From a virus: a stretch of 55,706 nt of DNA. The number at the start of each line of letters is the position of its first letter. The first letter of the stretch is position 1. The position numbers and the translations under genes were made by a program. Where the stretch lies: the IMG/VR virus record IMGVR_UViG_3300007345_000047. One strand, written 5' to 3'. Below the pieces are notes generated by a model. It did no database searches. It saw nothing but the letters and a program-made list of their open reading frames with translations, and was not told the DNA's origin. Positions 682-52,758 of the stretch are shown one piece after another.

Positions 682-768
682 ATGAATCAACAACTTAGAG
701 ACCACGGCATCAGCCTCCTGCTTATCGCAGCCCTTCTACTGGTACGCTTCGGAGGGGTCGCAGCATGA
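682..768 (+). CDS. Possible 28-aa hydrophobic leader peptide
   Basis: ATG 682 is preceded by ACAAGGA (668-674). The core is ISLLLIAALLLV. The TGA stop overlaps the ATG of the 765 gene (ATGA). Confidence 0.3.
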   Translation: MNQQLRDHGISLLLIAALLLVRFGGVAA

Positions 769-1532
769 ACGTACAATCACTGATAGCACGGGGCGCGATC
801 TTCTACTGCAGCACCAGCGGTGGCAAAGACAGTCAGGCGATGACAGCTCTTCTGGCACGCTTGATCCCTGCAGAGCAGCTGGTCTATGTGCACGCCAATC
901 TGGGTGAGGTCGAGTGGCACGGGGTGCAGGATCACATCAACGACACACTACCAGCCGGTGGTGAGCTAAACGTGGTCACGGCTAACTGGGCTGATGGCAC
1001 CGAGAAGACGCTGCTCGGCATGGTCGAGAATCGCGGTATGTGGCCGTCATCAGCCTACCGTCAGTGCACCAGCGACCTGAAGCGCAACCCGATCCAGAAG
1101 TTTATCCGCAGAGACCTGAAGGCACGCGGATCGAAGCTGGCCGTCAACTGCATGGGCATCCGATCCGAAGAATCCAAATCGAGAGCCAAGAACATCTCAG
1201 AGAAGTTCGTCGATGGCTGGAGGCTGGCCACTAAGGAGATGTGCGCGGCTGGCCGTGAAGTCTACGATTGGTATCCGCTCCACGACTGGTCAACTGAGAT
1301 GGTATTCGCCCAGATCAAGCGAGCTGGCCAGCAGCCACACTACGCATACGCCGAGGGCAACGAACGCCTAAGCTGCTGCTTCTGCATCATGGGCAGCAAA
1401 AACGACCTACGCAACGCCGCCCGTCTTCGCCCAGAGCTGGCAGCGAAGTACATCGCGCTGGAAGAGAAGATCGGCCACAGATTCACTGATAAGGCCACAC
1501 TGGCCGAACTGATAGCAACCGACGCGCAATAG
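765..1532 (+). CDS. PAPS reductase-like PP-loop ATP pyrophosphatase family protein
   Basis: N-terminal PP-loop FYCSTSGGKDSQAM and C-terminal Cys cluster ERLSCCFCIMG, typical of the PAPS reductase/DndC-like fold. Confidence 0.8.
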   Translation: MNVQSLIARGAIFYCSTSGGKDSQAMTALLARLIPAEQLVYVHANLGEVEWHGVQDHINDTLPAGGELNVVTANWADGTEKTLLGMVENRGMWPSSAYRQCTSDLKRNPIQKFIRRDLKARGSKLAVNCMGIRSEESKSRAKNISEKFVDGWRLATKEMCAAGREVYDWYPLHDWSTEMVFAQIKRAGQQPHYAYAEGNERLSCCFCIMGSKNDLRNAARLRPELAAKYIALEEKIGHRFTDKATLAELIATDAQ

Positions 1533-1592
1533 TCGAAACGGGGCGAGTCCCCGTCTGCAGGTCACGGCCTCCCTGCACTGATGAGACAGGCC
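1530..1592 (+). ncRNA. Type II hammerhead self-cleaving ribozyme, copy 1
   Basis: Order is UAGUC-GAAA, then stem III (ACGGGG/CCCCGU, loop CGAGU), then C1555 as cleavage site. Stem I follows (UGCAG 1556-1560 / CUGCA 1573-1577), then CUGAUGA (1578-1584), then GAC. The complete core is in the stem-II-open order. Confidence 0.85.
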
Positions 1593-1614
1593 AACAACTA
1601 CAAGGAATAAACGT

Positions 1615-2169
1615 ATGAACAAGTATCACTTCAATATTAAAGGATCAATGATCGACTCAGCCCGCGAGATACTAGGCGACCGAATGACAATGATCGGTAC
1701 GGGTGGAGGCTTCGATTATATTATGGTGCGATCCACCGAGAACCGTGACTTTGTGCTCTCCGGAGAGTGGTGCGATAGCTCGCCTGATTCGATGGATGAG
1801 TCCAGCAGCGTCTCGATCCAGAGGTGCAGCGCAGCAGAGTATGGCGAGTGGGATTGCGAGGGCTATGAGATCGCATTCGAGGGCACAGCCCAGCAGTGCC
1901 TGACATTTATGTCTATGCTCCCAGCTGTCTCTCTGGATGAGCGCAACGACGGCCTAGTGCGAGAGTTCGCCCAGATGTGCTCCGACCACTATCTGGAGAC
2001 GGGTGAAGACTTGCCCTATTCGACAGAGATGTTCGATGCCGACGGCACGAAGATCGTTAACCCGTGGATGGATGAGACCGGCAGATACCCCGTCGATCCC
2101 ACAGAGTACTACGGCATGGCATTCACAAAATGGTACGCGCCGACGCGAACCATTATGGGGAGTTTCTAA
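1615..2169 (+). CDS. Hypothetical protein (acidic)
   Basis: 184-aa ORF. The start is preceded by UACAAGGA (1599-1606). Confidence 0.6.
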   Translation: MNKYHFNIKGSMIDSAREILGDRMTMIGTGGGFDYIMVRSTENRDFVLSGEWCDSSPDSMDESSSVSIQRCSAAEYGEWDCEGYEIAFEGTAQQCLTFMSMLPAVSLDERNDGLVREFAQMCSDHYLETGEDLPYSTEMFDADGTKIVNPWMDETGRYPVDPTEYYGMAFTKWYAPTRTIMGSF

Positions 2170-2170
2170 T

Positions 2171-2356
2171 ATGAACCAGACTATATGGGTAACAATTGGG
2201 CATCAGTATGGGCGCGTCATCTACAAGCCAGCCAATGAGATCGCGAAGCTATTCGCAGATGTCGCTGGCACGCAGACTCTAACGCCCAATACCATCGCCC
2301 TGCTGAAGGCTGCAGGGTACACAATCAAAGTAGATCAACCGGAGGTGACAATATGA
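2171..2356 (+). CDS. Hypothetical protein (61 aa)
   Basis: ATG 2171 has GGGGAG 8 nt upstream. It is the in-frame tail of the listed ORF 2003..2356. Confidence 0.5.
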   Translation: MNQTIWVTIGHQYGRVIYKPANEIAKLFADVAGTQTLTPNTIALLKAAGYTIKVDQPEVTI

Positions 2357-2565
2357 TTATCGGAACTCTTATTGAAATGGCGCACACGTATGGCTTCCTC
2401 AATGCGGTAATGCTGCTGGCCGTGCTGGTCTGTCTCATTATCACGCTGATCGGGATGGTCACGGATCGCAGGGCTATGGAGCGGTTTCAGGCTGCGATGG
2501 CAACTAAGCGCGAGCAGCAGATGGTATGGGATCGCAACGAGTTCACAGATGAAATGATGAGTTGA
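2353..2565 (+). CDS. Small membrane protein
   Basis: GGAGG RBS and ATGA overlap with the upstream gene. One hydrophobic helix (FLNAVMLLAVLVCLIITLIGMV). Confidence 0.55.
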   Translation: MIIGTLIEMAHTYGFLNAVMLLAVLVCLIITLIGMVTDRRAMERFQAAMATKREQQMVWDRNEFTDEMMS

Positions 2566-2572
2566 GACTGTC

Positions 2573-2617
2573 GGTGACCTTCTAGCGAGGGTCACCCGCA
2601 GTAGCAATTCCGCTACT
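2573..2617 (+). promoter_or_regulatory. Conserved two-hairpin RNA motif, copy A
   Basis: Hairpin 1: GGTGACC-TTCTAGCGAG-GGTCACC (2573-2596). Hairpin 2: AGTAGC-AATTCC-GCTACT (2600-2617). The same architecture with different stem sequences occurs at 5344-5388. Confidence 0.5.
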
Positions 2618-2633
2618 TACAGGGAAACAAGTT

Positions 2634-3029
2634 ATGTCTAAGACAATTGAGCAGCAAATAGCAATAATCGAGAACGCATTAATGAGCCACTGCGAGGACT
2701 GTGTGAGCCGCCATGCAGAGCAGAGGCGAGTGGATAAAGCATTCGATGCACTCTGCAAACGGGCACTGCCATCAGGCCTGGCGAAAGCCTGGGACACAAA
2801 AAGCGAGCTCGAATTGACCGATCTATTAGAGTGGTACACCAGCGCAAATAGATTGCCGATGATGTCGGCAGATGAACTGCTTGCAGAGCTGCCAGACCTC
2901 GGGCTTACCGAGCGAGTGCAGGAATGCCACCGAGTGTGGCTGAACGCATTCTGTGAGGCGTGGGAGTTATTGGACGCGCCCAGCCAATCCGAAGAACTGA
3001 AGGCGGCCATACGCTGGATGAAGGTGTAG
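2634..3029 (+). CDS. Hypothetical protein
   Basis: 131-aa ORF. The start is preceded by UACAGGGA (2618-2625). Confidence 0.6.
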   Translation: MSKTIEQQIAIIENALMSHCEDCVSRHAEQRRVDKAFDALCKRALPSGLAKAWDTKSELELTDLLEWYTSANRLPMMSADELLAELPDLGLTERVQECHRVWLNAFCEAWELLDAPSQSEELKAAIRWMKV

Positions 3030-3094
3030 CCCAGACCGTCAATTAATGCTATAAAGCAATCCACACTCATTCATTTATTACAGGGAAAACAGTT

Positions 3095-3526
3095 ATGACA
3101 GCATTTACAGGTAAAATTGAAAACATCGAACGCATGGCCAGCAGCAGGAACGGCAACCCCCGCTACAAGTTCACCGTGGGCGGCCAGAGTGTCAAGCTGG
3201 CACCGGACAGCAGCTGGGGCTACTGCATCACCAACCTACGCAATCGCCACGTGACCGTAGAGGTCACGCCCCTACAGCATCTGGTTAAAAGCATCTGTGC
3301 TGCAGACCACTGGGAGGTCGAAGAGCTAGACGCATCTGGGGGATGGGAGAACAACTGGCACGATGAGACCGGCCAGCCCCAGACCTTCTCCACCAGAGGC
3401 GAAGCGCACGCAGAACTGGACGACCTGCTGGAGTCCGTGCAGCTGGCAGTGGCCGATGGTCACATGGCCGCAGAGTACAGCCGCGAAGATTACCGCGTAG
3501 TAATGGTCGGGGGGCGTGCAATATAG
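3095..3526 (+). CDS. Hypothetical protein
   Basis: 143-aa ORF. The start is preceded by UACAGGGA (3079-3086). Confidence 0.6.
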   Translation: MTAFTGKIENIERMASSRNGNPRYKFTVGGQSVKLAPDSSWGYCITNLRNRHVTVEVTPLQHLVKSICAADHWEVEELDASGGWENNWHDETGQPQTFSTRGEAHAELDDLLESVQLAVADGHMAAEYSREDYRVVMVGGRAI

Positions 3527-3586
3527 TCGAAACGGGGCGAGTCCCCGTCTGCAGATATCGGCCACCCTGCACTGATGAGACAGGCC
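3524..3586 (+). ncRNA. Type II hammerhead self-cleaving ribozyme, copy 2
   Basis: Same core and stems as copy 1: GAAAC 3529-3533, cleavage after C3549, CUGAUGA 3572-3578. It differs from copy 1 only at 4 loop-I positions. Confidence 0.85.
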
Positions 3587-3603
3587 ATTACACGGAGAAT
3601 GTT

Positions 3604-4332
3604 ATGAAGACAATCGAACTAATAGAACGCGCACCAATCTCGGAGGAGCTGAGAGCAGCCCTCCTTCCCGCAATAGCTAAGGCTGGCAAGTGGAGGGGGT
3701 CCCTGCTGGCCAACGCACCAGCCACCAATATCGCATGGCAGGTGCTGGTCGGTTTCGCTGCTCCAGCCCGCGTTAAGGTCTGGGGGATGATGGGCGAGAA
3801 CGCCGCACGATTCAATCACCTCGACGACCTAGCAGTGGCCAGCGGCATCAACTGGGCTAGAGCACTGAGCGCGACAGAGCCCTACGCACGCTGGAATGCC
3901 GATGGCCTAGATTTGGATCGCGATGCAATTCTGCGCGAGATCGAGCCGCACTTGCTACCAGCTAAGGCGACGGTAACTAAGAAGCGGGCGCATCCCTGCG
4001 TCGAGTTCCTAGATGTAGTGGCCGACGCACTGGCCGCTGGGTTCGGCGATATGCTGCACTTGGGGGAATTCAAAGACGATAGAGGCCATGACAAATTTAA
4101 GATAAAGCTGCTATGGGAGAACACTACTCTCAATGTGGTCATGGATAACAATGTGGCCGCGATCCGCGACCGTGCAGATCGCCTCGACCAGCAGATACGA
4201 GGTCATAAGGCCAAGGGAGAGGGCTCCACGCTAAAAGAGTACCGCAGGATGCGTAACTGGAAGCCCAGCTACAAAGTCGTGCCACTGAGCCCAGAGAGAG
4301 CCGCTGAGTGCGGCATGGAGATGGGGCTGTGA
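3604..4332 (+). CDS. Hypothetical protein
   Basis: 242-aa ORF. The start is preceded by UACACGGA (3589-3596). Confidence 0.6.
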   Translation: MKTIELIERAPISEELRAALLPAIAKAGKWRGSLLANAPATNIAWQVLVGFAAPARVKVWGMMGENAARFNHLDDLAVASGINWARALSATEPYARWNADGLDLDRDAILREIEPHLLPAKATVTKKRAHPCVEFLDVVADALAAGFGDMLHLGEFKDDRGHDKFKIKLLWENTTLNVVMDNNVAAIRDRADRLDQQIRGHKAKGEGSTLKEYRRMRNWKPSYKVVPLSPERAAECGMEMGL

Positions 4333-5333
4333 ACTACTATAACGAGTTCGACCCTTTCGCAGCCGCTTGGCTTGAAGAATTAATCAAAGACGGACTGATC
4401 CCAGCAGGGACAGTCGATCAGAGGAGCATTACCGATGTCAGACCCGAAGACCTTAAAGACTTTACCCAATGCCACTTTTTCGCAGGAATCGGCGGTTGGA
4501 GCTACGCACTCCAGCTTGCAGGATGGAGCCCCGATAGACCCGTCTGGACAGGATCACCCCCCTGCCAGCCTTTCTCAGTCGCAGGAAACCAAAAAGGTAA
4601 GGACGATCTTCGACACCTCTGGCCTGTCTTCTTCAATCTTATCCGCGAGTGTCAACCTGCAGTCGTTTTTGGTGAGCAGGTTGCCAGTGCGATTAGACAG
4701 TCTTGGTTCGACGATCTACAAACGGACATGGCGGCAGAAGGCTACGCCAGCGGATTGGCCGTACTGCCAGCTTGCAGCGTCGGTGCCCCGCACAAAAGGG
4801 AAAGACTCTTCTATGTCTCGGAGCGGATGGGCAACACCGAATACAATGGACGTACTGCCACTGAGGTCGGAAGAGGCTCTACGCAAGCAAGCGACAGGGG
4901 CGAGGAAGGGCAGGACGTTTCCAGCGAATCTACGGGAGCAGGTAGACCCTCGATCTCAGGAGATATACGCCGATGCGAGTTCTGTCCCCACGCCTACGAC
5001 GAAGAGCTTGGACGATACGGGTGCCCCAACTGTCTCGGTACAGGGTTGGACAACACCGAATACGCGGGACTGGAAGGACACAGCGGGGCAGTCAACGGAG
5101 GGGGAGGGCAACAGGCAGCGGATAGATCAAACGCCCAGGCAAGCGTTCCAGTTGATTGGAGCGATGTCTACTACCCCCGATTTAGGGACGGAAAATGCCG
5201 CCCAGTACCAACTGAATCCACGCTTTTCCCTTTGGCTCATGGGGTTCCCAACAGGGTGGGCATCCTGCGCGGAGCGGGTAACGCTATTGTCCCGCAAGTC
5301 GCAGCCGAAGTCATAAGGGCGTACATGGGCTGA
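4308..5333 (+). CDS. DNA (cytosine-5)-methyltransferase with internal zinc ribbon
   Basis: Motifs FAGIGG (I), PPCQPFS (IV), GEQV (VI), PHKRERLF (VIII), GAGNAIVPQV (X), plus CEFC-x12-CPNC. The start could instead be GTG 4329, which overlaps the upstream stop. Confidence 0.85.
   Translation: MRHGDGAVNYYNEFDPFAAAWLEELIKDGLIPAGTVDQRSITDVRPEDLKDFTQCHFFAGIGGWSYALQLAGWSPDRPVWTGSPPCQPFSVAGNQKGKDDLRHLWPVFFNLIRECQPAVVFGEQVASAIRQSWFDDLQTDMAAEGYASGLAVLPACSVGAPHKRERLFYVSERMGNTEYNGRTATEVGRGSTQASDRGEEGQDVSSESTGAGRPSISGDIRRCEFCPHAYDEELGRYGCPNCLGTGLDNTEYAGLEGHSGAVNGGGGQQAADRSNAQASVPVDWSDVYYPRFRDGKCRPVPTESTLFPLAHGVPNRVGILRGAGNAIVPQVAAEVIRAYMG
4435..5316 (+). other. 293-codon +1-frame ORF nested in the methyltransferase gene, with MTase-like motifs in its 3' half
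   Basis: Reads GWATPNTMD (4825-4851), GWTTPNTRDWKD (5044-5079) and LNPRFSLWLMGFPTGW (5212-5259). There is an in-frame ATG at 4813. The 5' part is low-complexity. Confidence 0.3.
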
Positions 5334-5343
5334 GAGCCTAACT

Positions 5344-5388
5344 GGGTAGTCTTCTCGCGAGGGCTACCCCTGATAGACTTTCCTATCA
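5344..5388 (+). promoter_or_regulatory. Conserved two-hairpin RNA motif, copy B
   Basis: Hairpin 1: GGGTAGTC-TTCTCGCGAG-GGCTACCC (5344-5369). Hairpin 2: TGATAG-ACTTTC-CTATCA (5371-5388). Confidence 0.5.
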
Positions 5389-5412
5389 ACTAGCATTTAC
5401 AAGGATAAAACT

Positions 5413-5802
5413 ATGAGCAATTACTTCTATAAATATAATGTGGCTCCGAAGGGTAAGAGAAGAGGCACCGTGAGATTCTTCAAAGCACTGTCGGACTGCA
5501 TCCAATTCGCAGAACTGCACGAGGGATCGCGACTAATGCACCGCAACCAAGTCGAGGGCGGCAGCGAGAGCCTGACCTGCACGCTCGACAGCCTGGATTC
5601 GGCCACACTAGGCACGTTCACCGACCGCGTGCAGCACGGATCGCGACCATCAGAACGGACAATCGATGTCTACGCGGAGGCGTACTCCTACGGATCGCAG
5701 GACAATGGCAAGCTGGTGGGTGTCATTTCCTGCTTTAAATTTGCCGACATCGATCAAATTCTAGCCACAAGGGGACTGTCCGATGTTATTTCTAACTCGT
5801 AA
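5413..5802 (+). CDS. Hypothetical protein
   Basis: 129-aa ORF. The start is preceded by UACAAGGAU (5398-5406). Confidence 0.6.
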   Translation: MSNYFYKYNVAPKGKRRGTVRFFKALSDCIQFAELHEGSRLMHRNQVEGGSESLTCTLDSLDSATLGTFTDRVQHGSRPSERTIDVYAEAYSYGSQDNGKLVGVISCFKFADIDQILATRGLSDVISNS

Positions 5803-5953
5803 GCCCCAACCAGGGCAGGATACAATACTCATAGGCGACAATATCCGCGTGGTTATACGCCGGATCGACGAGCACAATCAGGTACGGGTGGGCATCACAG
5901 CCCCGATAGAGATCAATATTGTCAGAGAGGAGATCGACAATCGTGGGAAATAA
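5783..5953 (+). CDS. csrA: CsrA/RsmA-family RNA-binding translational regulator homologue (56 aa)
   Basis: Not in the ORF track (too short). Own translation: MLFLTRKPQPGQDTILIGDNIRVVIRRIDEHNQVRVGITAPIEINIVREEIDNRGK. This aligns with CsrA MLILTRR..GE.L.IGD...V.V......QVR.G..AP....V.REEI. Confidence 0.8.
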   Translation: MLFLTRKPQPGQDTILIGDNIRVVIRRIDEHNQVRVGITAPIEINIVREEIDNRGK

Positions 5954-6791: not shown

Positions 6792-6983
6792 AGCACGGGT
6801 CTCGGTTACATGAACAGTTTAACTAATTATCGCATTCGGAGGCTTGCTTTGTCACGCGGGGGATGCGTAGGATAGAGGGTACTCTCAAGCGATACGTGGG
6901 GTATCGCTGAGAATAGTCAAGGCATTCAACGGTTCGCCTCTTCACCAGGCTACTCAGCTGGGGACGAAATTACTGAGTTCTAG

Positions 6984-7008
6984 GGGATCCTTCGGGATCC
7001 CTTTTTTT
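6984..7008 (+). terminator. Rho-independent terminator, + strand orientation
   Basis: GGGATCC-TTCG-GGATCCC followed by seven T. In the - direction no U-tract follows the hairpin. Confidence 0.75.
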
Positions 7009-27916: not shown

Positions 27917-30900
27917 CTAGTTTTTGTCTCTACCTTCCACGAATGGCTGCAGTGCTGCACCCACCACTTCCGGAATTGTTTCTGGTGCCTTCTCGTTACC
28001 TTCAAGAGCCGACTTTGTGTAGTCTAGCATTCTGACGACATTACCTGAACCTGGCAGTGCAATGAAAGTGCCAGCAACCTTGATAAAGTTCTCCAGTGTC
28101 TCAGCAGTATTAGCCCACGAAGGATTCGTTACCGCCTCCAACAGTTTCGGACCCTGAGACGGCAGCTGCTGCACGGTGCCAATGGCATCGTCCATCAGCG
28201 TGCTTGGCTTGAAGTTACTTTGACCAGGCAGCAGGTCTCCGAAGATTGGGATAGTGGCTCCCATAAAGCCGGTGTAACCCAGCCCCAGCCACTTAGCTAC
28301 CTTCAGAGGGAACTCGTCGTCGCGCTCGTCGTCGTCCAGCTTCGGTATGTTCATCGCAATTACTTCCGACAGAACCATTGTGAGCATTGGGGTTAGCACG
28401 AGTGCCTCGAACGCTGGAATGGACATCCACTCCTTACCGCCGCGAGTGTTTCTGTAAGCACGCTGGAAGATAGAAGAGTTGAACCAAGACCCAAAGACTG
28501 TAAGCATCTTCATGTAGGCAGCTTCATTAGACCGGAATATCTTACCTAAGTGAAGATCCATGCCGGAGCCGATAGTCTCAGCCACTGTTACATCTGCATT
28601 AAGGATGGCCAGCTCCTCGTCGCCGTGTTTCGTCATCTCGTTGCTGTATGTAGCCAGCCATGTGGGGTAAGAAACCACCATGTCCAGCATCACGTGCGGC
28701 GTGAAACCGTGCTGTGCGAATTTATTAAGAGCAGCTTCTGCCTTCGAGCCACTCTCCACACGCTTCATCAGATCCGCAGCTTCTCGGTTCAGGTGAGCTT
28801 TACGCGCTCGCATCTGGGCAGACTTCTCCTCCACGAACGCGCGGTTCTCTGCGAAGTTCCCATGAAAAGCCAAGGACGCACTGCTGTAGTTTATTGGACC
28901 CATCTCTGCCATCGAAGGGAGGACGGATGCCACCTGCTGCATAATGTTCTTCACGTTGTAGGCGAGATACATCATAGACTTAGAGTAGCGGATTTGTCTG
29001 ATTATAGCGGCCAGTGCAGGTATGGGATCCTGCTCTTTTAGATTTGTAGTTAAGCCCTGGATCGACTGCATCATCGCCTTATCAAAGCCCTCGCCAAACT
29101 TGTCTGCAAGTGAGGTACGGACCTCTTTGTCATTGAACAAAGACTGCAGCTCCGTAGCGGTTGTAGCGTACGCGATGTAGTGCGCGTTCTCTTCGATGAC
29201 CCTGTAGATGTTCTGCACTTCCAGCAGTGGCTTCCTGCCGCCTGAGCCCGAACGAGCCGTAGCTGCGGTGGCCTTACTGTTCGAGAGAGAGTTGACCGTG
29301 TTCAAAGGGTCTTCGTCTAGTCGTACCTTCGCATCTATGTCGCCGCCAGAACCACCGTAGATGAGAGTCATGTGCCCACCACGCATGGTCTTTCCATTCA
29401 CAGTGAAAGGCATGTGGGTCTCCAGAGGAGGAGCCACACCCTCGCGGTCGTGCGTTGCTTGGAACAGCGGGGTCTTCATGTGGTCACTCAGCTCCCACAG
29501 TGACTGGACCATGTCGAGCTCCTGCTCGGACATCTGCTCCATCATTCGCATAACGTCATTGTCGGTGACATCGAAGCCTTTACGAACAGCCTCTTGGCTA
29601 GTATCAGTCCCCCAGTACGCAGCAAGCATGAATCGCTGGCGAGCAGACAGATGCCATTTGCTCCCGTCCTCTTTGGTCACGCTTCGAACCGACGCGCTAC
29701 TATCAGCTATACCAGTGAGGTCTGCATCAGCGAACAGCTCGTCTAGTTTTCCATAGAAGTCTTCGAGAATGTTCAGCTTGGCGTTCTCGGCGTTGCTGAT
29801 CCTACGGTAGACACTGTCGAAGAATGCGCCGTCGCCAAGGTCTCGAATCATATTACGCAGCGAGGGCACCAGGTGGATAGCGTGCTGTATCCAACCGCGC
29901 ATCCTGTGGCGACTAGATGCCTCCCAATCTGCTTTACTCTTTGACTCTCCCATCTCTTCCAGCTGGGCGAGCATAGCGTTGCGTTCCATAGAGAGCGGCC
30001 CCTTGTCTTCGGCGGCGATCTGCCCGCCCACGAACCGTAGGTGCTTGAGCTGGTCGCTCACACTTTCCAGCTGCTCCAGTGTCATCTCATCAAACGTAGG
30101 AAGGTACTCTAGGCCAGCCCGCAGCTCTATTACATTTAGATCCTTCAAGTTCACATCGACACCGTCGCGCTGCTGACCGGCGATCCAGTTAGCAAAGTCT
30201 CGTGCAGCCTTGACTCTCTTTCCTTCTTTCGGTCTGCTGGAAGTGTCATACATTTTAGCCAGCCGCTTCATGGACTGTATGTATTCTGCATCCACCTGAG
30301 TGGTCTTGTAGTCTCTCTTCTGTACGCCCCTAATATAGTCGCGGTACGTGATCGCATCCTTTCTAGCTTTAAGAGCGGCCAGGAATAAATAGTGGTTAGC
30401 TATCTGCTGGAGTTTAGCATCGTACGCTGCTTCCGCTGTCTTGGCGCGAGCCGCATCCTGTGCAGCCCTTACCTCTGCCCTGTGGAATCGCTCTGGCTTC
30501 AACTCGCCGTAGGTCATAGTTCCCACACTCTGTGCAGCTTTAGCCTTCAGGAATTCTTTGTCCACATCTGGGGTGCTCTTCTTCCGTGAGCGGGACTTGA
30601 TAGCTCTCAGTTCCTTCAGCATCAGATCGGCTTGCGCCTCATTGTGCATAGCTTCTCTGGCTTCAGCTTCGATAGTTCCGTCGTTGAGCATGTCGCCGTA
30701 CTTGGCAACCATTATCTCTTCCGCAGCAGCATCTGCCGCAGCAGTAATCCCTTCAGCATTGTGGACAGCGGTGACCATCTCTTCTACAGATGCAAATCCT
30801 AATTGCTCTGCCAGAAGCTCTGGGTCATCCCCGCCTTTCTTAGTTAGGAACTGCAGCTTAGTTTTCTTAGGGAGAGACTCCACGCCCATAGCAGCCACTA

Positions 30901-33900
30901 CAGCATCGCGATCGAGGGGCAGGTCTTTCATTATGCCCATAGCCTGGTAGACAGGCTGTCCTGCCAGCTTCTCTTTTTGTTCTGCAATGAGAGGCTTCTT
31001 CTCTTCGTTCCACTCTTTACTGCGGCGAGCTCCCAGTTCTTTCAGTAGCTTCTCGAACAGAGTCATCTCTGCATTCTTCTTTCGAGTTTCAAGAGACTTC
31101 TGGTAGCTCTCCCACTGCTTGTCGGTCATACCGGCTCGCTCTTTGCCCTTAAAGAGCTGCTCGTACTCAGCACCAGCGGCCACATTGGCAATCTCTGCTT
31201 CAGTAGCCAGCATGCGATCAAAGATCTCAGTTATCTCTTTATTAAGAGGAAGGCCGAGCTGGCGCATGGACTTATAAATTTGTCCCAACCACTTGGAGAA
31301 TTGCAGGAAGGCAGCTCGTAGTCCACGAGTGGGAGCCTTACCCGTACGCAAGTAATCCTCAAAGGTTCTCGCCCACAGTTCATGCTCTTTGACACCAATG
31401 GCATCGAAGGAGTCTACACCTAGCATCTTCAGCATGGCTTTCTGGTTATCGCCCAGACCATACTTCGCTGCTAGTGACTTCTCAGTCTCTAGGAACAGGT
31501 GACCTGCTTCATGTAAGAATGTGGACTTATCAGATCCAGCAGCCAGCTCAATGAGCTTCTCGCCGGACTTCATAATCTCTATGCTGCCGCGTGGCGCATC
31601 TTTTCCAGGCTTCTTCTGAGCTAGGATTGTGGCCTCGTTTGCACGGTCTGGATCGAATACAGCGTTGATAGATCGAATGTGTGCAGGATCGAATATCGCA
31701 GTGTTCTTGATATTGTCGGGGTCATTGTTGCCGCGTTTGGGATCCCCTCCTTCAAGCACAGTGAATGCAGTGTATTGCATGTCTCTGATGGCCACTTGAA
31801 TAGCGGAGTCTTTCTCTACGATCTCCCAGTTGCCCGATTCGATCGCACGCATTCGCCAGTCAGCTCCGGCCTTCAACTGGTCACCAGGTGTGCCGGTTGC
31901 CTCTAGCTCTATCTGGATGTGTTGGTGGAGATCGTTGTACTCGTCCTCGGTCAAGTTCTGGTGGTCTAGTAGCTTGTCCTTCTTAATAAGCAAAGGATAC
32001 ACGGGACCGACAGAAATGCCTGAAGGTGGAACGAATCCCTCGTTGTAGCCCGCGAACGTAGATGCAAAGTCTGGATCCGGAGTTACGAATATAAAGTCTC
32101 TGCCGTTGTCGAAGCGGTCGAGTACGAACCCCATAATGTTAGAAGCTGTGGTGCCGTGGTAGTAGATGTTCTCAGTGTCGAATCCCATCTCCTTGGCACG
32201 CTGCATTCTGGCACTGAAGGTCATGCCCTCTTCGCCAAACTTCTCAACACCTTTGATCCAGTCCACAGCTTCGATAGCATCTCTGCCCTTATAGCTAGTC
32301 TGCTCATTCACAGCATCGAGCATGGCGGTCTCAGATATTTCCTGAAGATCGAACTCCACATCGTCAGTGATCCGCACACCAAGACTCTCAAGCTCTGCGA
32401 GTGCTTCGTTGAATTTGTCCTGTCTGGCTTTCTCTACGTCGGACTGATTGAGGACAAGTGAGCTTTCATCTTTTTGAAATTCAGGTGGGGCTGTTGGTTC
32501 TGTGCCCGTATCTGATCGTCGCTTACTCCCTCGTTTGGACTTTGCGCTGTCTGGTCGATTAGACTCAACTTCGCTTTCGCCGAGTCTAGCTGTAGCGAGT
32601 CTTCGGAATTCTTCTTCATAGTCGGTAGCCTCTGTTTTCTTGCTGCCCACACCATTGGTGACATACAAGTCTTTTTCTAAATACCACACCAATGCTTGAA
32701 ATGTGGCGGCGTTCAATTCTATACCCTCGGCCTTCAATTGAGCAAGACCCTCGTACGACACTTCTCGAATCCAGTTCCGGTTGCTTCCGTTGCCAGGCTC
32801 GATCACAGGGTCGTTCACTGCTTCGTATAAATTCTTAGCAGTCTTGTTAATGTCAGACTTGTCTTTGTATTTGCTGCGAGCATATCTGGCACGGTACTCT
32901 TTAGCGAGTTCCAGCAGCGCGTCGTCGTCCTTCATCAGCAGAGCTTTGTTGATGCCTGGAGTTCTAGGGGGCAGTGCCTTAATGGCTGCTCTAAACTTCG
33001 CAGCACGGGTGCTACTCTTGTCACCCTTCTTTGACTCGGCGTGCATGGCATCTTCACGGATAGGCATGTTAGTACCAGTCCATCTTCCCCATGTCTTCAT
33101 AAACCAGCGATCCATAGTTATGGGATCGTAGTTGCCACTGAGGTTCTGATAGAACGCTCCCAGCTTAGGTCCGAGAATCATAGAGCCGTTGACTACAGTG
33201 TCCTGCAGCTCTCCGGACACTGTGATGCCAGTGAATTCGGCAAGGTCTCGCACGGTGATTGGGTTCTCTAACATCCTAACAGTGTCCTTCATCCCCATAC
33301 CGGAGATAAGGCTGTTCATCAGCTTGAAGTGACCCTTGTTCGCTGCGATTGTGGTAGACCAGCCAATGATCGGGAACTTCTTCTTCTTTTTGTAGTAGCT
33401 GTAGACCTCCTCAGCATGCTTGGAGTTAGACTCCACATCTGCCATATTCGAGCTGATAGCCATAGCCAGCTTGAAGATAACTAATGCTTCCGGATCTGTC
33501 TGCAGCTCTGGGTGGATAAGAGCCGCGTAGTGCATTGCAGATTCGATGCTGGTGCTGTACCAGTCGGCTCCGTTGCCAGATTGGCTAAGTGCCCACTTCA
33601 CTTCTTCCTTCATCGTTTCGACGATAATGGCTTTGTTCTCTTCGGTTCGCTCGCGGAGTGGCCCGCCGTGCTCTTCGGCTATCAGCTCATCCAAGCGAGT
33701 AGCAAGCATGGACGCAGTGACCTTACCCTTCTCAGGGATTCCATCGATCTTCTCTCCGGAGGTAATAGACTTCAAAGTCACATTGTCGCCGGTCAAGTCT
33801 ACTTCAGCTTGATATAAGAAGTCAGACGAGTCGCCGTATGTTGGGTTCTTCGCCAGAGTTAAGGGTCCGACCTGGAGCACCTCGACTGCACCTACTATAG

Positions 33901-36442
33901 GTTCCATCGTGGCGCGGTCATAGAAATAACTGTGTCTCTCGGGGTCGTACCCCACTTGCACGTAGGCAGGATCTGATAGCGCATTGTTCGCCATCTCAAT
34001 AGATTCCTCTACGCTGATCTTCTTCCACTTACCTTTGACTACGGCGATCGTGCTCTTAGCACTGCCCGTTGCAATCTTCTGGGAGATGCCTTCGTGTGCA
34101 CCCAAGGTAGCGTCGGTGACTAATGCCACACTCTCGTAGCCGATAGACTTGCCAGCTTTAAAGCCAGAGCCCTTCTCGTGTACTGAGACCACCCAAGTGC
34201 CGTGCCGTGTGTACGCAGGAATATCCAGACGAACACCAACTTCGTGGCCTTCCTCCAGACTCTTCATTGGCGCACCTATTCGAGCTTGCTTTCCCTTATC
34301 CAGCGACGTGGATACTTCATCCACAGTGGCCGGTGTCGGAACACTCTCGTATGGTGTAACGGGCTTGTACTCGTTAACCAGGCGAGAATACTCTTCCGGA
34401 GTCATTGACCCGTCAGCTACCTGCTTGGCAGCTTCAGTTAACTCTGGGATTCTTTTGGTGACCTCTTTGAAGTACATGTCGATCCGCGGGTTCGCGTGCT
34501 GGATCTTGACATTCTTACCTTTCTTAGGTTCTGCAGGAGCTTCTTCTGTTTGCGTTTCTTCCACCGCTGTGTCGGTATCCGCGCCCGTTTCTACCGCTGT
34601 GTCGGTATCAGTAGTCTCGGCATCCCCATCGACCACAATCTCTGCAGTAGTGTCGGTGAGCGAGTTAATCTTAGGAGCAGCCTGTACCTCTGGCGAGGAC
34701 TCATACACTGGGGGCTTTGCCGGTGCATCCACAGCTCCTTCGGCGGGCTTGATCCTGAAGTTCATCTCTTCATAGATGTCCCGCGCTGTTACCTCAATGC
34801 CTCGCCCCTGCAGCTCTGTAACCTTAGTAGTTACATACGCAGGAATTATCTGGGCGGACATCTCAGCCGTGCCTTTAGCTAACCTGCCGGAAGCTACTAG
34901 CTGGCTTACCACCTCATCGTGGATATCATCAGCTTCAGTTCTGGTGGCCTTATCCTCTTTGGCTAGATTCATCAGCCGCTCTAGCTGGCTGCTGTCTCTG
35001 TTCTGAATCTCGAATTGTGTGTACGAGTCTGCAGACCGCTTCATGTGCGGGCGCAGTGCCTCAGTGAGCTGCTCGTCTCCGATTATGTCGAGAGCGAATG
35101 AGTCCACAGTTAAGGAGACATCCTGGCCGGAACCCATCTGGTCTTGAAGTGTGGTGGGAACAGTTAGTCCGGCATCCATTGCCGCCTGTATTCCTTCTGG
35201 AGAGATGTAAACCCTGTCATCGGGATCCATATCCTTAAAGAATTGTCTGGCAACATCAGGAGCCTCTTGGTTCAGCTTCATGCTCAGGATCGAGGATATC
35301 ATCCCGTCGAGAGACTGCTGCTCATTTACAGAGCCAAGGTCTTTCTCAAAGTTCTGTTGTACTCGGAGTTCGACAGCATCGAATGGAAGAGTGGCAGCTC
35401 TCATCGCTCCACCCATCGGACCGCCAGCTACCATGCCCGCAAAGCCTCTATCGAGACTCTCTGCGACAGACATCTCCGCTCCGGTTCCCATTGTCTCGCC
35501 GACGTATTCTACTTGTTCTTGTACGAATTCTGTTAAGCCCTCTACGGCTCCACGCTTCGCTATCTCACCGGCAGCAGCTCGTAGTGTTGGAGACGTGAGC
35601 TTATTCCCCAGCATGCCCAGAGCACCTTTGGCCGAGAGTCTGTCAATCAAAGTCACAGCGACCGCAGTCGGAACTGACTTAACTAATTCCATTGGGTCTA
35701 CTGCTCCCCCTCCGGCATTTTCAGTTCTGGACTCGGCTATCTCTTGTGTACGAGAGGCTAGGTATGCGGGAAGAGTTGCCATCATTCCTGCGATATCAAC
35801 AAAGGACTGTGCCCCAGTCTCCATCACATATCCGGCCAGGTTAGCTACAGAGGGCTCTCCTTTAAGGTCTTCCCAGCTGTACTGCTGCTCGTAGCCGAGA
35901 CCGCCTTCGGAAATTGCCTTTCCTAGATAGTCCATCTTCTCTGATAGATTGAGGGATCCTTCCTCGGCTAGACCCAATTGTTCTGCCATCATCTCGTAGC
36001 CGGACACAGCGGTGCCGGCAAACTGAATCAGGTTACCTGTGAGAGTGTTAGCGCGTTCGCCCATGCCCAGGCCGACATTCTTCCAGTAGCTGCCCTTCCT
36101 TCTCTGGGCGAGCTCAAAGCTCTTCATGCCCTCTAAGTCATCGACGGTCATGCGAGCTTGCTTGGGATCTGCCATCCACAGTGCTACACCAGGTGTCTCC
36201 TGCTGGAGACGCATGGCATCTATGTTCATCTGCCGTCTGGTTCTGTTGGTCTCTGCCGTCTCTATATCTGATTCAGCAGAAGTGAAGGGAACCCCAGTCT
36301 GCTGAGACACGGTCTCAGCCCTGCGAGCTGTCGAAGGGTCATCGACTTCTAGGGCTAGTCCGAGAGACTCATTAAGTTTCTGGGTTTCTCTTTCTTCTTT
36401 CCATTTGGTGGCTTTCGCAATAAGTTCTTCATCTACAGGCAT
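27917..36442 (-). CDS. Giant (2841 aa) virion-associated polyvalent / ejection protein
   Basis: Single uninterrupted ORF with a Gly/Ala-rich N-terminal region and zincin motif FLHEAGHLFLE. The YHGTTASNIMGF region is possibly ART-like. Confidence 0.75.
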   Translation of the reverse strand: MPVDEELIAKATKWKEERETQKLNESLGLALEVDDPSTARRAETVSQQTGVPFTSAESDIETAETNRTRRQMNIDAMRLQQETPGVALWMADPKQARMTVDDLEGMKSFELAQRRKGSYWKNVGLGMGERANTLTGNLIQFAGTAVSGYEMMAEQLGLAEEGSLNLSEKMDYLGKAISEGGLGYEQQYSWEDLKGEPSVANLAGYVMETGAQSFVDIAGMMATLPAYLASRTQEIAESRTENAGGGAVDPMELVKSVPTAVAVTLIDRLSAKGALGMLGNKLTSPTLRAAAGEIAKRGAVEGLTEFVQEQVEYVGETMGTGAEMSVAESLDRGFAGMVAGGPMGGAMRAATLPFDAVELRVQQNFEKDLGSVNEQQSLDGMISSILSMKLNQEAPDVARQFFKDMDPDDRVYISPEGIQAAMDAGLTVPTTLQDQMGSGQDVSLTVDSFALDIIGDEQLTEALRPHMKRSADSYTQFEIQNRDSSQLERLMNLAKEDKATRTEADDIHDEVVSQLVASGRLAKGTAEMSAQIIPAYVTTKVTELQGRGIEVTARDIYEEMNFRIKPAEGAVDAPAKPPVYESSPEVQAAPKINSLTDTTAEIVVDGDAETTDTDTAVETGADTDTAVEETQTEEAPAEPKKGKNVKIQHANPRIDMYFKEVTKRIPELTEAAKQVADGSMTPEEYSRLVNEYKPVTPYESVPTPATVDEVSTSLDKGKQARIGAPMKSLEEGHEVGVRLDIPAYTRHGTWVVSVHEKGSGFKAGKSIGYESVALVTDATLGAHEGISQKIATGSAKSTIAVVKGKWKKISVEESIEMANNALSDPAYVQVGYDPERHSYFYDRATMEPIVGAVEVLQVGPLTLAKNPTYGDSSDFLYQAEVDLTGDNVTLKSITSGEKIDGIPEKGKVTASMLATRLDELIAEEHGGPLRERTEENKAIIVETMKEEVKWALSQSGNGADWYSTSIESAMHYAALIHPELQTDPEALVIFKLAMAISSNMADVESNSKHAEEVYSYYKKKKKFPIIGWSTTIAANKGHFKLMNSLISGMGMKDTVRMLENPITVRDLAEFTGITVSGELQDTVVNGSMILGPKLGAFYQNLSGNYDPITMDRWFMKTWGRWTGTNMPIREDAMHAESKKGDKSSTRAAKFRAAIKALPPRTPGINKALLMKDDDALLELAKEYRARYARSKYKDKSDINKTAKNLYEAVNDPVIEPGNGSNRNWIREVSYEGLAQLKAEGIELNAATFQALVWYLEKDLYVTNGVGSKKTEATDYEEEFRRLATARLGESEVESNRPDSAKSKRGSKRRSDTGTEPTAPPEFQKDESSLVLNQSDVEKARQDKFNEALAELESLGVRITDDVEFDLQEISETAMLDAVNEQTSYKGRDAIEAVDWIKGVEKFGEEGMTFSARMQRAKEMGFDTENIYYHGTTASNIMGFVLDRFDNGRDFIFVTPDPDFASTFAGYNEGFVPPSGISVGPVYPLLIKKDKLLDHQNLTEDEYNDLHQHIQIELEATGTPGDQLKAGADWRMRAIESGNWEIVEKDSAIQVAIRDMQYTAFTVLEGGDPKRGNNDPDNIKNTAIFDPAHIRSINAVFDPDRANEATILAQKKPGKDAPRGSIEIMKSGEKLIELAAGSDKSTFLHEAGHLFLETEKSLAAKYGLGDNQKAMLKMLGVDSFDAIGVKEHELWARTFEDYLRTGKAPTRGLRAAFLQFSKWLGQIYKSMRQLGLPLNKEITEIFDRMLATEAEIANVAAGAEYEQLFKGKERAGMTDKQWESYQKSLETRKKNAEMTLFEKLLKELGARRSKEWNEEKKPLIAEQKEKLAGQPVYQAMGIMKDLPLDRDAVVAAMGVESLPKKTKLQFLTKKGGDDPELLAEQLGFASVEEMVTAVHNAEGITAAADAAAEEIMVAKYGDMLNDGTIEAEAREAMHNEAQADLMLKELRAIKSRSRKKSTPDVDKEFLKAKAAQSVGTMTYGELKPERFHRAEVRAAQDAARAKTAEAAYDAKLQQIANHYLFLAALKARKDAITYRDYIRGVQKRDYKTTQVDAEYIQSMKRLAKMYDTSSRPKEGKRVKAARDFANWIAGQQRDGVDVNLKDLNVIELRAGLEYLPTFDEMTLEQLESVSDQLKHLRFVGGQIAAEDKGPLSMERNAMLAQLEEMGESKSKADWEASSRHRMRGWIQHAIHLVPSLRNMIRDLGDGAFFDSVYRRISNAENAKLNILEDFYGKLDELFADADLTGIADSSASVRSVTKEDGSKWHLSARQRFMLAAYWGTDTSQEAVRKGFDVTDNDVMRMMEQMSEQELDMVQSLWELSDHMKTPLFQATHDREGVAPPLETHMPFTVNGKTMRGGHMTLIYGGSGGDIDAKVRLDEDPLNTVNSLSNSKATAATARSGSGGRKPLLEVQNIYRVIEENAHYIAYATTATELQSLFNDKEVRTSLADKFGEGFDKAMMQSIQGLTTNLKEQDPIPALAAIIRQIRYSKSMMYLAYNVKNIMQQVASVLPSMAEMGPINYSSASLAFHGNFAENRAFVEEKSAQMRARKAHLNREAADLMKRVESGSKAEAALNKFAQHGFTPHVMLDMVVSYPTWLATYSNEMTKHGDEELAILNADVTVAETIGSGMDLHLGKIFRSNEAAYMKMLTVFGSWFNSSIFQRAYRNTRGGKEWMSIPAFEALVLTPMLTMVLSEVIAMNIPKLDDDERDDEFPLKVAKWLGLGYTGFMGATIPIFGDLLPGQSNFKPSTLMDDAIGTVQQLPSQGPKLLEAVTNPSWANTAETLENFIKVAGTFIALPGSGNVVRMLDYTKSALEGNEKAPETIPEVVGAALQPFVEGRDKN

Positions 36443-50556: not shown

Positions 50557-51978
50557 CTAGCTGGGTCTACCCCTATTAGGCAAGCCAGGTGTTCCGCTGC
50601 GATTACCGAAGTCGGTCGCTTTATTGGAGAGAGTCTGTACTTTAGGGGGTCTCCACTCTTGGTGTGCGTCGTCTCGAGTAAGACCTGGAAACAATTCAGT
50701 GAAGCCCCAGATTGCAGAGTCTGCTCTATCTGGAGACTTCATGCCCTTGTACCCGTCTGGGTAGAAGCTGCACATTTGCTCTTCGATCTCTGGGTAGTAC
50801 CCGTAGTGCCGGATCCTGCCTCGTTCGTACAGTGTAGCTATCGGCGCGGCTCGAACGACTTTTCCCCTGGTGGCGTGCACGAGTTTGACTGGAATGTTTT
50901 CACCTCCGATATTTCCTGCTTCAATCGTGTGCTTAACCATTGCGCCACCATAGTTCGACTCGCCGACCACACAGTCTGCTTTATGTCGTTGAAACGCATC
51001 ACCCACGATTTTCGACCAAGTGCTGGGTCCGTACTTGCCGGAGAGGTCTTCGAGGAGGTAGCCTTTCCCATCCGTGCCCAGGCCAGTAACAGTGATGCCA
51101 ATCTCGTCTGATCGGCTATCTTCATCATCGCTCTCACATCCAGAGGGATCGACGTTGACGGTAAGCCTAACCATGTCAGGACACTCATCGCCAGCCGAAC
51201 CCGTACAGCGTGTGGCATCAAGTATCTCGTCGTTCCAAAGCGAATCGTTGTCTTCATCAGAAAACTGGCCCAGAAAGAAACGCTTCCGTTCTTTTTCAGG
51301 CATCTCTGCAAGCCGTTGGAGGTACTTGGCATCGAGGTTCTCCTGATTATCGAGGGGATTCATAAACATGAACCCTACGCTCATCGGGGTTATTAGGGGT
51401 TTATTCGTGTCTGGGGACTTCTTCTCCACGAAGTATTTGTACGTCCAGTGGCGTTTCGAGGGTGGGTTAAAGTCATAATACGACTTCAGAGCCAGACCAG
51501 GGCACACTTGCGCTAGACGTGTCAGTGCTAGTTTAACTGACTGCCAAGGTATCTGGCTACACTCGTTGAAGTAGATGGTCGCGTACTCGTTACCGAGGAT
51601 GTTCTCCACACGGTCTTTGTCGTCCAGTCCACCGAACCATATCTCGGATCCGTTGGGCAGTTTGTAGAACCAGTCCGTCTTGTTGAGGTTCTTCTCGGAG
51701 TAGACCCCTGGATAGCACAGCCCCATCATCTTGGGGAAGGTGTCACGCACAATGGCTTTGATGATAGCGTTCTGCCGGAAACGCAAGATAGCGTGCCGAC
51801 TATTGGGAACTCTGAGTGCTCGGGTCGCTACAGCGTAGCAGAGCAGGAATGTCTTACCGGATCGTGAACCGCCACCCAAGCCAAAATCCGCGGCATCAGA
51901 ACCCAGTGCATCGACTGCAGAGCCCTGTTGCGCGGTTAGCTTGAATTTCTTAGGTTTCGCCGTGGGGGCTACGGTCAT
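50557..51978 (-). CDS. terL: Terminase large subunit
   Basis: Walker A GLGGGSRSGKTF. Acidic nuclease-half motifs lie in the C-terminal part. 473 aa. Confidence 0.85.
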   Translation of the reverse strand: MTVAPTAKPKKFKLTAQQGSAVDALGSDAADFGLGGGSRSGKTFLLCYAVATRALRVPNSRHAILRFRQNAIIKAIVRDTFPKMMGLCYPGVYSEKNLNKTDWFYKLPNGSEIWFGGLDDKDRVENILGNEYATIYFNECSQIPWQSVKLALTRLAQVCPGLALKSYYDFNPPSKRHWTYKYFVEKKSPDTNKPLITPMSVGFMFMNPLDNQENLDAKYLQRLAEMPEKERKRFFLGQFSDEDNDSLWNDEILDATRCTGSAGDECPDMVRLTVNVDPSGCESDDEDSRSDEIGITVTGLGTDGKGYLLEDLSGKYGPSTWSKIVGDAFQRHKADCVVGESNYGGAMVKHTIEAGNIGGENIPVKLVHATRGKVVRAAPIATLYERGRIRHYGYYPEIEEQMCSFYPDGYKGMKSPDRADSAIWGFTELFPGLTRDDAHQEWRPPKVQTLSNKATDFGNRSGTPGLPNRGRPS

Positions 51979-52331: not shown

Positions 52332-52758
52332 GGGGCACCTCGTAAAGTTGTACTGGCAATCCGGAGTTTATATCCACATCGCACGCAATTTCTACAGCTC
52401 GTTTCGCTGTGGCTCCAGCTAGTATAGCACCCAGTGCTACCTCCTTCCCAGTGCCCATCGTATATGGGGGCAGCAGCTGTGTAGGGCTCAGATCCTGGCA
52501 GTACAGGTAGCACTTGCCGTCTGGCTTTAGGTGTATCACAGAGAACCCGTCATCTGCTAGGTCTGGTGGATCGTCCTTCTTCCCGCCCCGCTTGAGCCAT
52601 CTGATGACTTCCTTGCAGGTACTCACGGTTCCCGCAAATGCGTAAATGTTTCCCTTATATTTGATTAGTTTCTTACAGGGGTGTAGGTCTCGGATGTTAG
52701 CTTCGGTAGACTGCGAGTCGGATGCTATGTGTGTTCCGTCCCATGCAATCGTTGTCAT
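52324..52758 (-). CDS. HslV / proteasome beta-subunit-like Ntn hydrolase
   Basis: MTTIAWDGTHIASDSQST (Thr directly after Met), FAGTVSTC and TMGTGKEVALGAILAG parallel HslV TTIV..DGQ.., GFAGGTAD and GSGG. Confidence 0.65.
   Translation of the reverse strand: MTTIAWDGTHIASDSQSTEANIRDLHPCKKLIKYKGNIYAFAGTVSTCKEVIRWLKRGGKKDDPPDLADDGFSVIHLKPDGKCYLYCQDLSPTQLLPPYTMGTGKEVALGAILAGATAKRAVEIACDVDINSGLPVQLYEVPRA

Follow-up and report, generated by a model that had tools for sequence, protein, structure and literature searches.

Two putative pseudoknot-stabilized type II hammerhead ribozymes at the gene junctions of a tailed-phage operon

Type II hammerhead ribozymes with a pseudoknot of at least four pairs between loop I and the 3' tail were described by Perreault et al. 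in 2011 (PMC3088659); their activity was lost when the pseudoknot was disrupted and was rescued by compensatory mutation at 0.5 mM Mg2+. In prophages, multiple hammerheads were found to flank single genes or short gene blocks, and it was suggested that long phage transcripts are processed in this way to shorter mRNAs (PMC3088659). The purpose of these hammerheads remains undefined according to a 2019 review (PMC6765202), and type II hammerheads located beside phage-like genes cleave in vivo in Desulfovibrio vulgaris (PMC8782182). Here, two elements of this class were analyzed in a stretch of viral DNA of 55,706 nucleotides (IMG/VR virus record IMGVR_UViG_3300007345_000047; hereafter, the window), namely, copy 1 at positions 1530–1593 and copy 2 at positions 3524–3587, both on the + strand. 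Copy 2 had been recognized as a second hammerhead in a first-pass annotation of the window, which also referred to earlier descriptions of such pseudoknots in type II hammerheads; this is correct, the validation with disruptive and compensatory mutants being that of Perreault et al. Both copies are probably active, pseudoknot-stabilized, self-cleaving type II hammerheads, which would cut the polycistronic RNA at 1555/1556 and 3549/3550. The basis for this reading is sequence, fold, covariation and placement, from which we infer cleavage at the locus and the effects on expression, whereas the influence of the pseudoknot on the cleavage rate and the cleavage of type II hammerheads in vivo are established for the hammerhead family and not for the window locus.

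The two copies form a 65-nt direct repeat (1529–1593 and 3523–3587; repeat finder and direct reading) with 61 of 65 positions identical and a spacing of 1994 nt. The identity stops at the borders of the element, and the flanks are unrelated. In both copies, the order of elements is the same: UAG, stem II GUC, GAAA, stem III (ACGGGG-CGAGU-CCCCGU), C17 with the cleavage site, stem I, CUGAUGA, GAC and AGGCCA. The UAG stop codon of open reading frame (ORF) 3095..3526 (3524–3526) provides G3526 as the first nucleotide of stem II of copy 2, the 5' strand of which, GUC (3526–3528), pairs with the 3' strand GAC (3579–3581) as G3526-C3581, U3527-A3580 and C3528-G3579. The core motifs GAAA (G12, A13, A14 and A15.1; 3529–3532) and CUGAUGA (3572–3578) were identified both by direct reading and in the Rfam alignment. 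The stem III hairpin (3532–3548) consists of A3532-U3548, C3533-G3547 and the pairing of G3534–G3537 with C3543–C3546, closed by the loop CGAGU, and the stem I hairpin (3550–3571) consists of five pairs, from U3550-A3571 to G3554-C3567, followed by the A3555·C3566 mismatch. Its loop contains GGCC at 3560–3563, which would form a 4-bp pseudoknot with GGCC at 3583–3586 within the 3' tail AGGCCA (3582–3587), A3582 facing A3564. The predicted cleavage site GUC/U, with GUC at 3547–3549 and the cut between C3549 (C17) and U3550 (3549–3550), fits the position relative to the core, as anticipated in the first-pass annotation. A Shine–Dalgarno sequence, GGAG (3594–3597), lies 7 nt past the pseudoknot and precedes the ATG (3604–3606) of ORF 3604..4332; thus, the element was correctly placed on the stop codon of the upstream gene and before gene 3604.

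Copy 1 begins with the UAG stop codon (1530–1532) of an ORF encoding a PAPS-reductase-like protein. By direct reading, it comprises stem II (1532–1534/1585–1587), the core elements GAAA (1535–1538), GUC (1553–1555) and CUGAUGA (1578–1584), stem III (1538–1554), a 6-bp stem I (1556–1561/1572–1577) and a 5-bp pseudoknot (G1566–U1570 with A1588–C1592), and its predicted cleavage site, judged by position relative to the core, is C1555/U1556. The GGCC motifs of copy 1 are located in the loop at 1566–1569 and 3' of stem II at 1589–1592, and these coordinates, together with those of copy 2, agree with the first-pass annotation. The hammerhead core (CUGANGA, GAAA and U16.1-H17) is present in full in both copies; in both, too, loops cap stems I and III while the 3-bp stem II is open, which is the type II permutation. 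The pseudoknot of at least four pairs typical of most type II members has 4 bp in copy 2 and 5 bp in copy 1.

Copy 1 was detected with the Rfam model RF02276 (Hammerhead_II) at 1531–1595 with 38.1 bits (E = 3e-4), above the gathering score of 37, whereas copy 2 was detected at 3525–3589 with 32.2 bits (E = 0.011 for the whole window), below this score, which is a detection threshold and not a structural feature. The missing 5 bits are lost in the stem I/loop I segment, which the alignment treats as a local gap, because the 5-bp stem I is shorter than that of the model and the pseudoknot has only 4 bp. A covariance model built from related phage hammerheads gave 83.7 bits for copy 1 and 78.1 bits for copy 2, with 11.6 bits for the next-best match; since nothing else in the window exceeded this value, the window contains exactly two copies and chance is excluded. 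Neither a third copy nor a ribozyme of another class was found in the window in the scans with Rfam and the subfamily model, and CTGATGAG at 47180 (− strand), considered as a further ribozyme candidate, was rejected, as it occurs at the chance rate.

Related hammerheads were collected from IMG/VR with a pattern in which stems I and II of the subfamily were fixed. This yielded 110 stretches; the subfamily model recognized 124 hammerheads in 56 of the pattern-matched contigs, 111 of them distinct, and placement was counted at 80 sites dereplicated by upstream sequence. At the four pseudoknot positions that correspond to GGCC/GGCC, standard pairing is seen in about 95% of the 111 distinct hammerheads; both partners have changed in 13, 52, 30 and 2 sequences, respectively. 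None of 500 shuffles matched the observed pairing, and register shifts gave only 28–44% paired. The mean length of the loop/tail helix was 4.69 bp, compared with 3.01 bp when tails were swapped between sequences (maximum 3.32 in 500 trials). In total, 48 different loop I/tail helices were found, for example, UGCCC/GGGCA, GGCC(U)/(A)GGCC, UGAUCCU/AGGAUCA, UCAGCU/AGCUGA, UGAGCU/AGCUCA, GACC/GGUC, UAACCC/GGGUUA and UCGCG/CGCGA. Stems I, II and III are 98.6–99.7% paired, with both-side changes at 14 of 15 pairs; the stem II pairs reach 99.7%, and stem III covaries. On this comparative evidence the loop I/tail GGCC/GGCC pseudoknot is real, as had been proposed from the two copies, and the complementary loop and tail are kept in related phages, as the proposed covariation check called for.

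It is extremely improbable that the repeats lack catalysis and only look like hammerheads, being instead intergenic elements of another kind (for example, a terminator, an RNase site or a REP-like element). The minimum free energy (MFE) z-scores near zero would fit such elements; however, every invariant core nucleotide is correctly arranged in both copies, three stems and the pseudoknot covary, no hairpin is followed by a U-run and no terminator-like site was called there, and the copies score 78–84 bits against 11.6 bits for the next-best match in the window.

The four differences between the copies are 1561/3555 G>A, 1563/3557 C>A, 1564/3558 A>U and 1570/3564 U>A. The first-pass annotation had assigned all four to loop I; all do fall between the stem I arms, but G1561>A3555 replaces the sixth stem I pair, G1561-C1572, with A3555·C3566, and U1570>A3564 replaces the fifth pseudoknot pair, U1570-A1588, with A3564·A3582. 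Copy 2 consequently has a 5-bp stem I and a 4-bp pseudoknot, compared with 6 and 5 bp in copy 1. GGCC is unchanged between the copies, as had been noted, but this is not significant on its own: the five shared stem I pairs enclose 12 positions, and four differences would all fall outside GGCC with a probability of 70/495 = 0.14. The window copies alone therefore show no constraint on GGCC, whereas the comparative data do. The fifth pseudoknot pair, the exact site at which the window copies differ, is optional, being present in 38 of 98 related hammerheads and missing from 60.

These differences raise the question of whether copy 2 is a weakened or decaying duplicate, slow or inactive, so that only copy 1 processes the transcript. 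We consider this improbable. Its Rfam score of 32.2 bits against the cut-off of 37, the A3555·C3566 mismatch atop stem I and A3564·A3582 beside a pseudoknot of 4 instead of 5 bp would agree with decay, as would the far slower cleavage with shorter pseudoknots in the construct of Perreault et al. (PMC3088659). However, the core is intact at every position, helices of 4 bp form the second commonest class of loop/tail helices (27 of 111), and the lack of the fifth pair is the state of the majority counted above. The UGCAGA...GGCCAC...CCUGCA variant of stem I found in copy 2 also occurs in the unrelated phage contigs L005, L007 and L019. Moreover, the exact 3' half of copy 2 is conserved in seven contigs from several samples, being identical in L200 and L203–L207 (relatives from different samples, see below) despite recombining surroundings, which argues for selection on this half.

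If both copies are active, each would fold during transcription of the gene block from 765 to ~6500 into a three-way junction with an open 3-bp stem II and capped stems I and III. The loop I GGCC would pair with the GGCC 3' of stem II and hold stems I and II parallel, which would permit fast cleavage at physiological Mg2+. Cuts after C1555 and C3549 would divide the polycistronic RNA into three pieces. The stop codon would remain on the upstream pieces, whose 3' ends would be formed by the GC-rich stem III hairpin and carry a 2',3'-cyclic phosphate; the downstream pieces would begin with a 5'-OH and carry the stem I hairpin, the pseudoknot and, 7–10 nt later, an unpaired ribosome-binding site (RBS). 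The likely consequence would be that the stability and translation of neighboring gene groups become mutually independent. Several points weigh against this interpretation. Copy 2, apart from its score below the Rfam gathering value, has a stem I of only five pairs, and its pseudoknot is limited to 4 bp; in the construct of Perreault et al. (PMC3088659), cleavage became about 20-fold slower when the pseudoknot was cut down from 6 to 4 bp. MFE folding of the isolated sequences misses the hammerhead fold, with z-scores of about zero, although pseudoknots are beyond this nested-only method. Both flanking genes have relatives that lack a ribozyme, so the element is dispensable for these genes. Finally, the promoter and terminator scans were generic (sigma-70 and hairpin-U) and may not fit the host.

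The position of the window copies between a stop codon and an RBS recurs in the related hammerheads. The upstream stop codon is UAG, with its G starting stem II, in 61 of 124 hammerheads, and an abutting UAA is found in 12 of 124. Among the 80 dereplicated sites from other phages, the UAG overlap seen in the window occurs at 39, and a stop codon overlapping (UAG) or abutting (UAA or UAG) stem II occurs at 48; the base directly 5' of stem II is A at 68. The next start codon mostly lies 15–35 nt past stem II. From stop placement and start-codon distance, it follows that the ribozyme typically fills the gap between stop codon and RBS, as does copy 2, which takes up the entire interval from the stop codon of ORF 3095..3526 to the RBS of ORF 3604..4332. 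No mention of the overlap between stop codon and stem II was found in the type II hammerhead literature examined. Hammerheads were also observed in other arrangements: in L041 (4112–5669; IMGVR_UViG_GVMAG-M-3300009436-18_000001), three at 4335–4408, 4493–4566 and 4852–4924 stand amid an array of tRNA genes, which suggests ribozyme processing within a viral tRNA cluster, and arrays of 4–7 type II hammerheads within 2–3 kb occur in the single phage contigs L003, L042, L105, L080, L017 and L176.

The overlap in both copies and at about half of the family sites might indicate that cleavage is conditional, the folding of the ribozyme being controlled by the ribosome terminating on UAG or by pairing of the tail with the upstream coding sequence. 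A ribosome at the stop codon would, by its established footprint, shield stem II together with GAAA and the 5' strand of stem III, and could thereby affect cleavage. In a folding of the 141-nt context, the tail of copy 2, GGCCAUUAC (3583–3591), can pair with GUAAUGGUC at 3500–3508, and GGCCA of copy 1 (1589–1593) can pair with UGGCC at 1501–1505. Nevertheless, control of this kind is hardly likely. In the relatives L200 and L205, the same tail stands after a different upstream gene that lacks the complement, and GGCC is frequent in this GC-rich region, so the pairing is probably due to chance. The overlap is explained equally well by genome compaction together with the near-invariant A 5' of stem II, and since the ribosome occupies the site only transiently, the ribozyme can refold once it has left.

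Relatives of the window phage were found through the proteins flanking the ribozymes and not through the ribozyme itself. Protein-pattern searches of IMG/VR with ORF 3604..4332 and ORF 3095..3526 gave no match, and the relatives came only from a large protein database. The sample is small and consists of short metagenome contigs. In the close relatives L200 and L202–L207 (95–99% protein identity), hammerheads are present at the same junctions in all cases (L200 392–459; L203 240–307 and 3063–3131; L204 2164–2232; L205 764–831; L206 570–637; L207 467–534; window 1529–1597 and 3523–3591). The hammerheads of these contigs can be divided into a 5' half, from the stop codon to stem III, and a 3' half, from stem I to the tail and RBS, and each half stays with its own flanking gene. 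The 5' half A (stem III GGGGCGAGUCCCC) follows the PAPS reductase gene and ORF 3095, whereas half B (CGGAGCGAUCCG, with compensatory changes) is found after a version of ORF 3095 whose C-terminal half differs and, in L203, after an unrelated gene; the compensatory stem III variant CCGGAGCGAUCCGG was found in L200 and L205–L207. The 3' half i accompanies ORF 1615, half ii ORF 3604, and half iii a 438-aa methylase; half iii has compensatory changes in stem I, while its tail, RBS and ATGAA are the same as in half ii. The combinations A+i, A+ii, B+ii and B+iii were found. The window and L205 diverge from the middle of ORF 3095 through stem III and are identical from GUC/UGCAG onward, and in L203 the identical tail, RBS and ATGAA precede a different gene. 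L205 and L203a share an identical 5' half as well as tail, RBS and ATGAA, and the genes on both sides are unrelated. A wider count of reassorted halves, split by alignment column, agrees with these observations but is biased by the pattern, which fixes stems I and II.

In more distant relatives, the ribozyme is missing. L114, with a PAPS reductase 77% identical to that of the window, passes from TAA to ATG within 2 nt without a ribozyme (3092–3110), and its homology to the window ends at 1523, 6 nt before copy 1. In L196, L197, L199 and L201, which encode homologues of ORF 3604 (50–64% identical), the match begins at window positions 3586–3591, and no hammerhead precedes the homologue (junctions L196 231–307, L197 569–596 and L199 2196–2224). 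Rfam searches of the ribozyme-less relatives at E ≤ 0.5 gave nothing. The hammerhead thus behaves as a discrete 63-nt insertion or deletion. Since the halves reassort in close relatives and the ribozyme is missing in distant ones, the sequences indicate a discrete, dispensable module that spans the interval between stop codon and RBS and is located at mosaic breakpoints; some of these breakpoints fall within the ribozyme.

It is possible, although we put it forward only tentatively, that the hammerheads persist mainly as exchangeable junction modules through which early-gene cassettes are shuffled, the effect on expression being secondary; such a role is compatible with catalysis. The conserved cores and the invariant 3-bp stem II would let any 5' half join any 3' half: any two halves would make a working ribozyme because the variable helices and the pseudoknot each lie within one half and the sole helix between the halves is the invariant 3-bp GUC/GAC. 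In addition to the four combinations of halves and the breakpoints of the window, L205, L203a, L114, L196, L197, L199 and L201 described above, this possibility is favored by the likeness of the window copies, whose 5' halves are identical at 31 of 31 positions behind unrelated genes and which are 93% alike, compared with the 40–75% typical of copies sharing one contig; this high likeness fits recent recombination or gene conversion. The element of Roseobacter phage CRP-212 is 86% identical, yet this phage shows no protein similarity to the window (tblastx, E ≤ 1e-6). On the other hand, mosaic joints of phages sit at gene boundaries anyway, through selection, and the count of reassorted halves carries the bias noted above. 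The strict conservation of core, stems and pseudoknot implies that catalysis itself is under selection. In its general form, the proposal is that the type II hammerheads of phage operons consist of two parts and act as freely recombinable junction modules, the 5' half belonging to the upstream and the 3' half to the downstream gene; it is offered as a conjecture that may well prove wrong. If true, gene cassettes would be shuffled by recombination between hammerheads without losing processing, and both the dominance of type II in phages and the identical 5' halves of the window copies would be explained.

The window is the genome of a tailed phage encoding terminase, portal and tail proteins, DNA polymerase, primase and helicase. 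No cultured phage is closely related to it. A megablast search with positions 700–5400 against GenBank phages gave no match; the nearest cultured relatives of the terminase are those of Synechococcus phages Ssp-JY42 and Yong-M4-211 (45% identity), and the annotated gene layout of Ssp-JY42 looks unlike that of the window. Low-complexity stretches were observed at 1–300, 421–447 and 55657–55706, with related CCAGCC-type repeats at both ends of the window; the repeats comprise CCAGCAGCCACCAGCC-type units, (GCT)16 at 178–225 and (GCT)n at 429–447. Because of the related repeats at both ends and because L114 spans the end and start of the window, the window is probably a permuted complete genome, which suggests circular permutation or terminal redundancy. 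The hammerhead pattern matched only two bacterial genomes, both of them metagenome-assembled genomes of Lachnospiraceae, which provide no clue to the host. A 2841-aa ORF (27917–36442, − strand) has an N-terminal LPD22 'large polyvalent protein' domain and matches phrog_9880 (function not assigned); its identification as an N4-like virion RNA polymerase was unsupported, as no relative of solved structure was found by sequence.

Both ribozymes lie inside the + strand gene block from 765 to ~6500, where all genes have the same orientation and no gap exceeds 82 nt. The block contains small ORFs together with genes for the PAPS-reductase-like protein, a CsrA homologue and a C5 DNA methyltransferase. 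The scans indicated a promoter-like site at 598–627 and a strong terminator-like site at 6982–7003, and the hairpin-U scan called no terminator-like site between the copies. A single transcript spanning both ribozymes is therefore plausible, and so is the programmed segmentation that the first-pass annotation took two ribozymes in one operon to imply, although the latter still has the standing of an inference. The predicted middle RNA fragment (1556–3549, 1994 nt) would carry ORFs 1615–2169, 2168–2356, 2353–2565, 2634–3029 and 3095–3526. Its gene content varies: L204 has an extra gene, L205 lacks 2557–3026, and L203 has a different left part.

Several other features of this operon were observed. 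An RBS/start cassette, UUACAGGGAAA-N-A-N-GUUAUG, is repeated before ORFs 2634 (2617–2636) and 3095 (3078–3097). The intergenic motif before ORF 3095 (AAUUAAUGCUAUAAAGC..., 3036–3094) is conserved in L205, and in L196 (247–306) it precedes the homologue of ORF 3604, at the place of the hammerhead in the window. The CsrA homologue (56 aa, 5783–5953, + strand; Pfam PF02599, E = 7e-15), which belongs to a global regulator family per Pfam, is encoded in the same operon as the ribozymes. It is conserved in L196, L197, L199 and L205. CsrA is an RNA-binding translational regulator that recognizes GGA motifs near ribosome-binding sites. A linkage between ribozyme and PAPS reductase was considered and rejected, as hammerheads occur in only 2 of 80 phage contigs with a homologue; in L172 (the same contig as L034), hammerheads flank the PAPS reductase gene, and in L176 a hammerhead lies directly on the stop codon of this gene.

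Compared with the described members of the class (RF02276; PMC3088659), the window elements have the same core, the same circular permutation with stem II open, a short stem II, the pseudoknot and the multi-copy phage or prophage context. There is no fundamental difference; in the window subfamily, stem II is fixed at 3 bp (GUC/GAC) and stem I measures 5–6 bp. The closest counterpart in a cultured phage is the CRP-212 element (MZ892988.1, 52397–52462), whose 86% identity refers to copy 1 and which has the same GGCC/GGCC pseudoknot. gp56 ends with a UAG that overlaps stem II of the element, and gp55, with its RBS and ATG, follows 24 nt past this stem; the element differs in its compensatory stem I (CGCAGG/CCUGCG) and in the lack of tblastx similarity given above. 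CRP-212 has two type II hammerheads, unannotated in its record (L113 8394–8463 and 7634–7713; MZ892988.1 ~52397–52462 and ~51633–51712). The three type II hammerheads of D. vulgaris (cyPhyRNA-seq, PMC8782182) belong to the same class, have phage-like neighbors and cleave in cells, but they are bacterial chromosomal loci, likened to the window by class and gene neighborhood alone.

The PeSL cassettes of T4-type phages (Arbiol et al. 2010, PMC2839356; Comeau et al. 2014, PMC4122927) are short, repeated intergenic signals for expression that flank variable early genes and lie at breakpoints of insertion, deletion and replacement. In the window and the small sample of relatives (L114, L196, L197, L199, L200 and L203–L207), repeats likewise flank variable genes, with breakpoints at or in the repeats, and the reassortment and the presence/absence polymorphism suggest a role in modular exchange analogous to that of these cassettes. 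PeSLs, in which an early promoter is joined to a terminator stem-loop, act on DNA and transcription, whereas the window repeat consists of a ribozyme and an RBS, and no promoter-like or terminator-like site was called at 1529–1597 or 3523–3591. The window element is not a member of the PeSL family, and the likeness covers only the side observation on breakpoints. In synthetic insulators such as RiboJ, a hammerhead placed before the RBS removes the upstream RNA and leaves a defined 5' hairpin, which makes expression independent of context. RiboJ was engineered from a satellite-RNA hammerhead of another topology, so the analogy is functional only. In the Racr paper, hammerheads appear solely as a cloning tool. 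The hammerhead class, the pseudoknot, the phage context and the proposal of transcript segmentation have all been known since 2011, and the window element is an unremarkable representative of the class; only the reassortment of the halves and the presence/absence polymorphism go further than what was described then. The value of the locus is that of a clean, well-annotated example, with the stop codon in stem II, the RBS just past the pseudoknot and two copies in one operon. The natural variation in the relatives and the element of cultured roseophage CRP-212, a possible experimental system, together provide a practical way to study the role of these ribozymes in phages.

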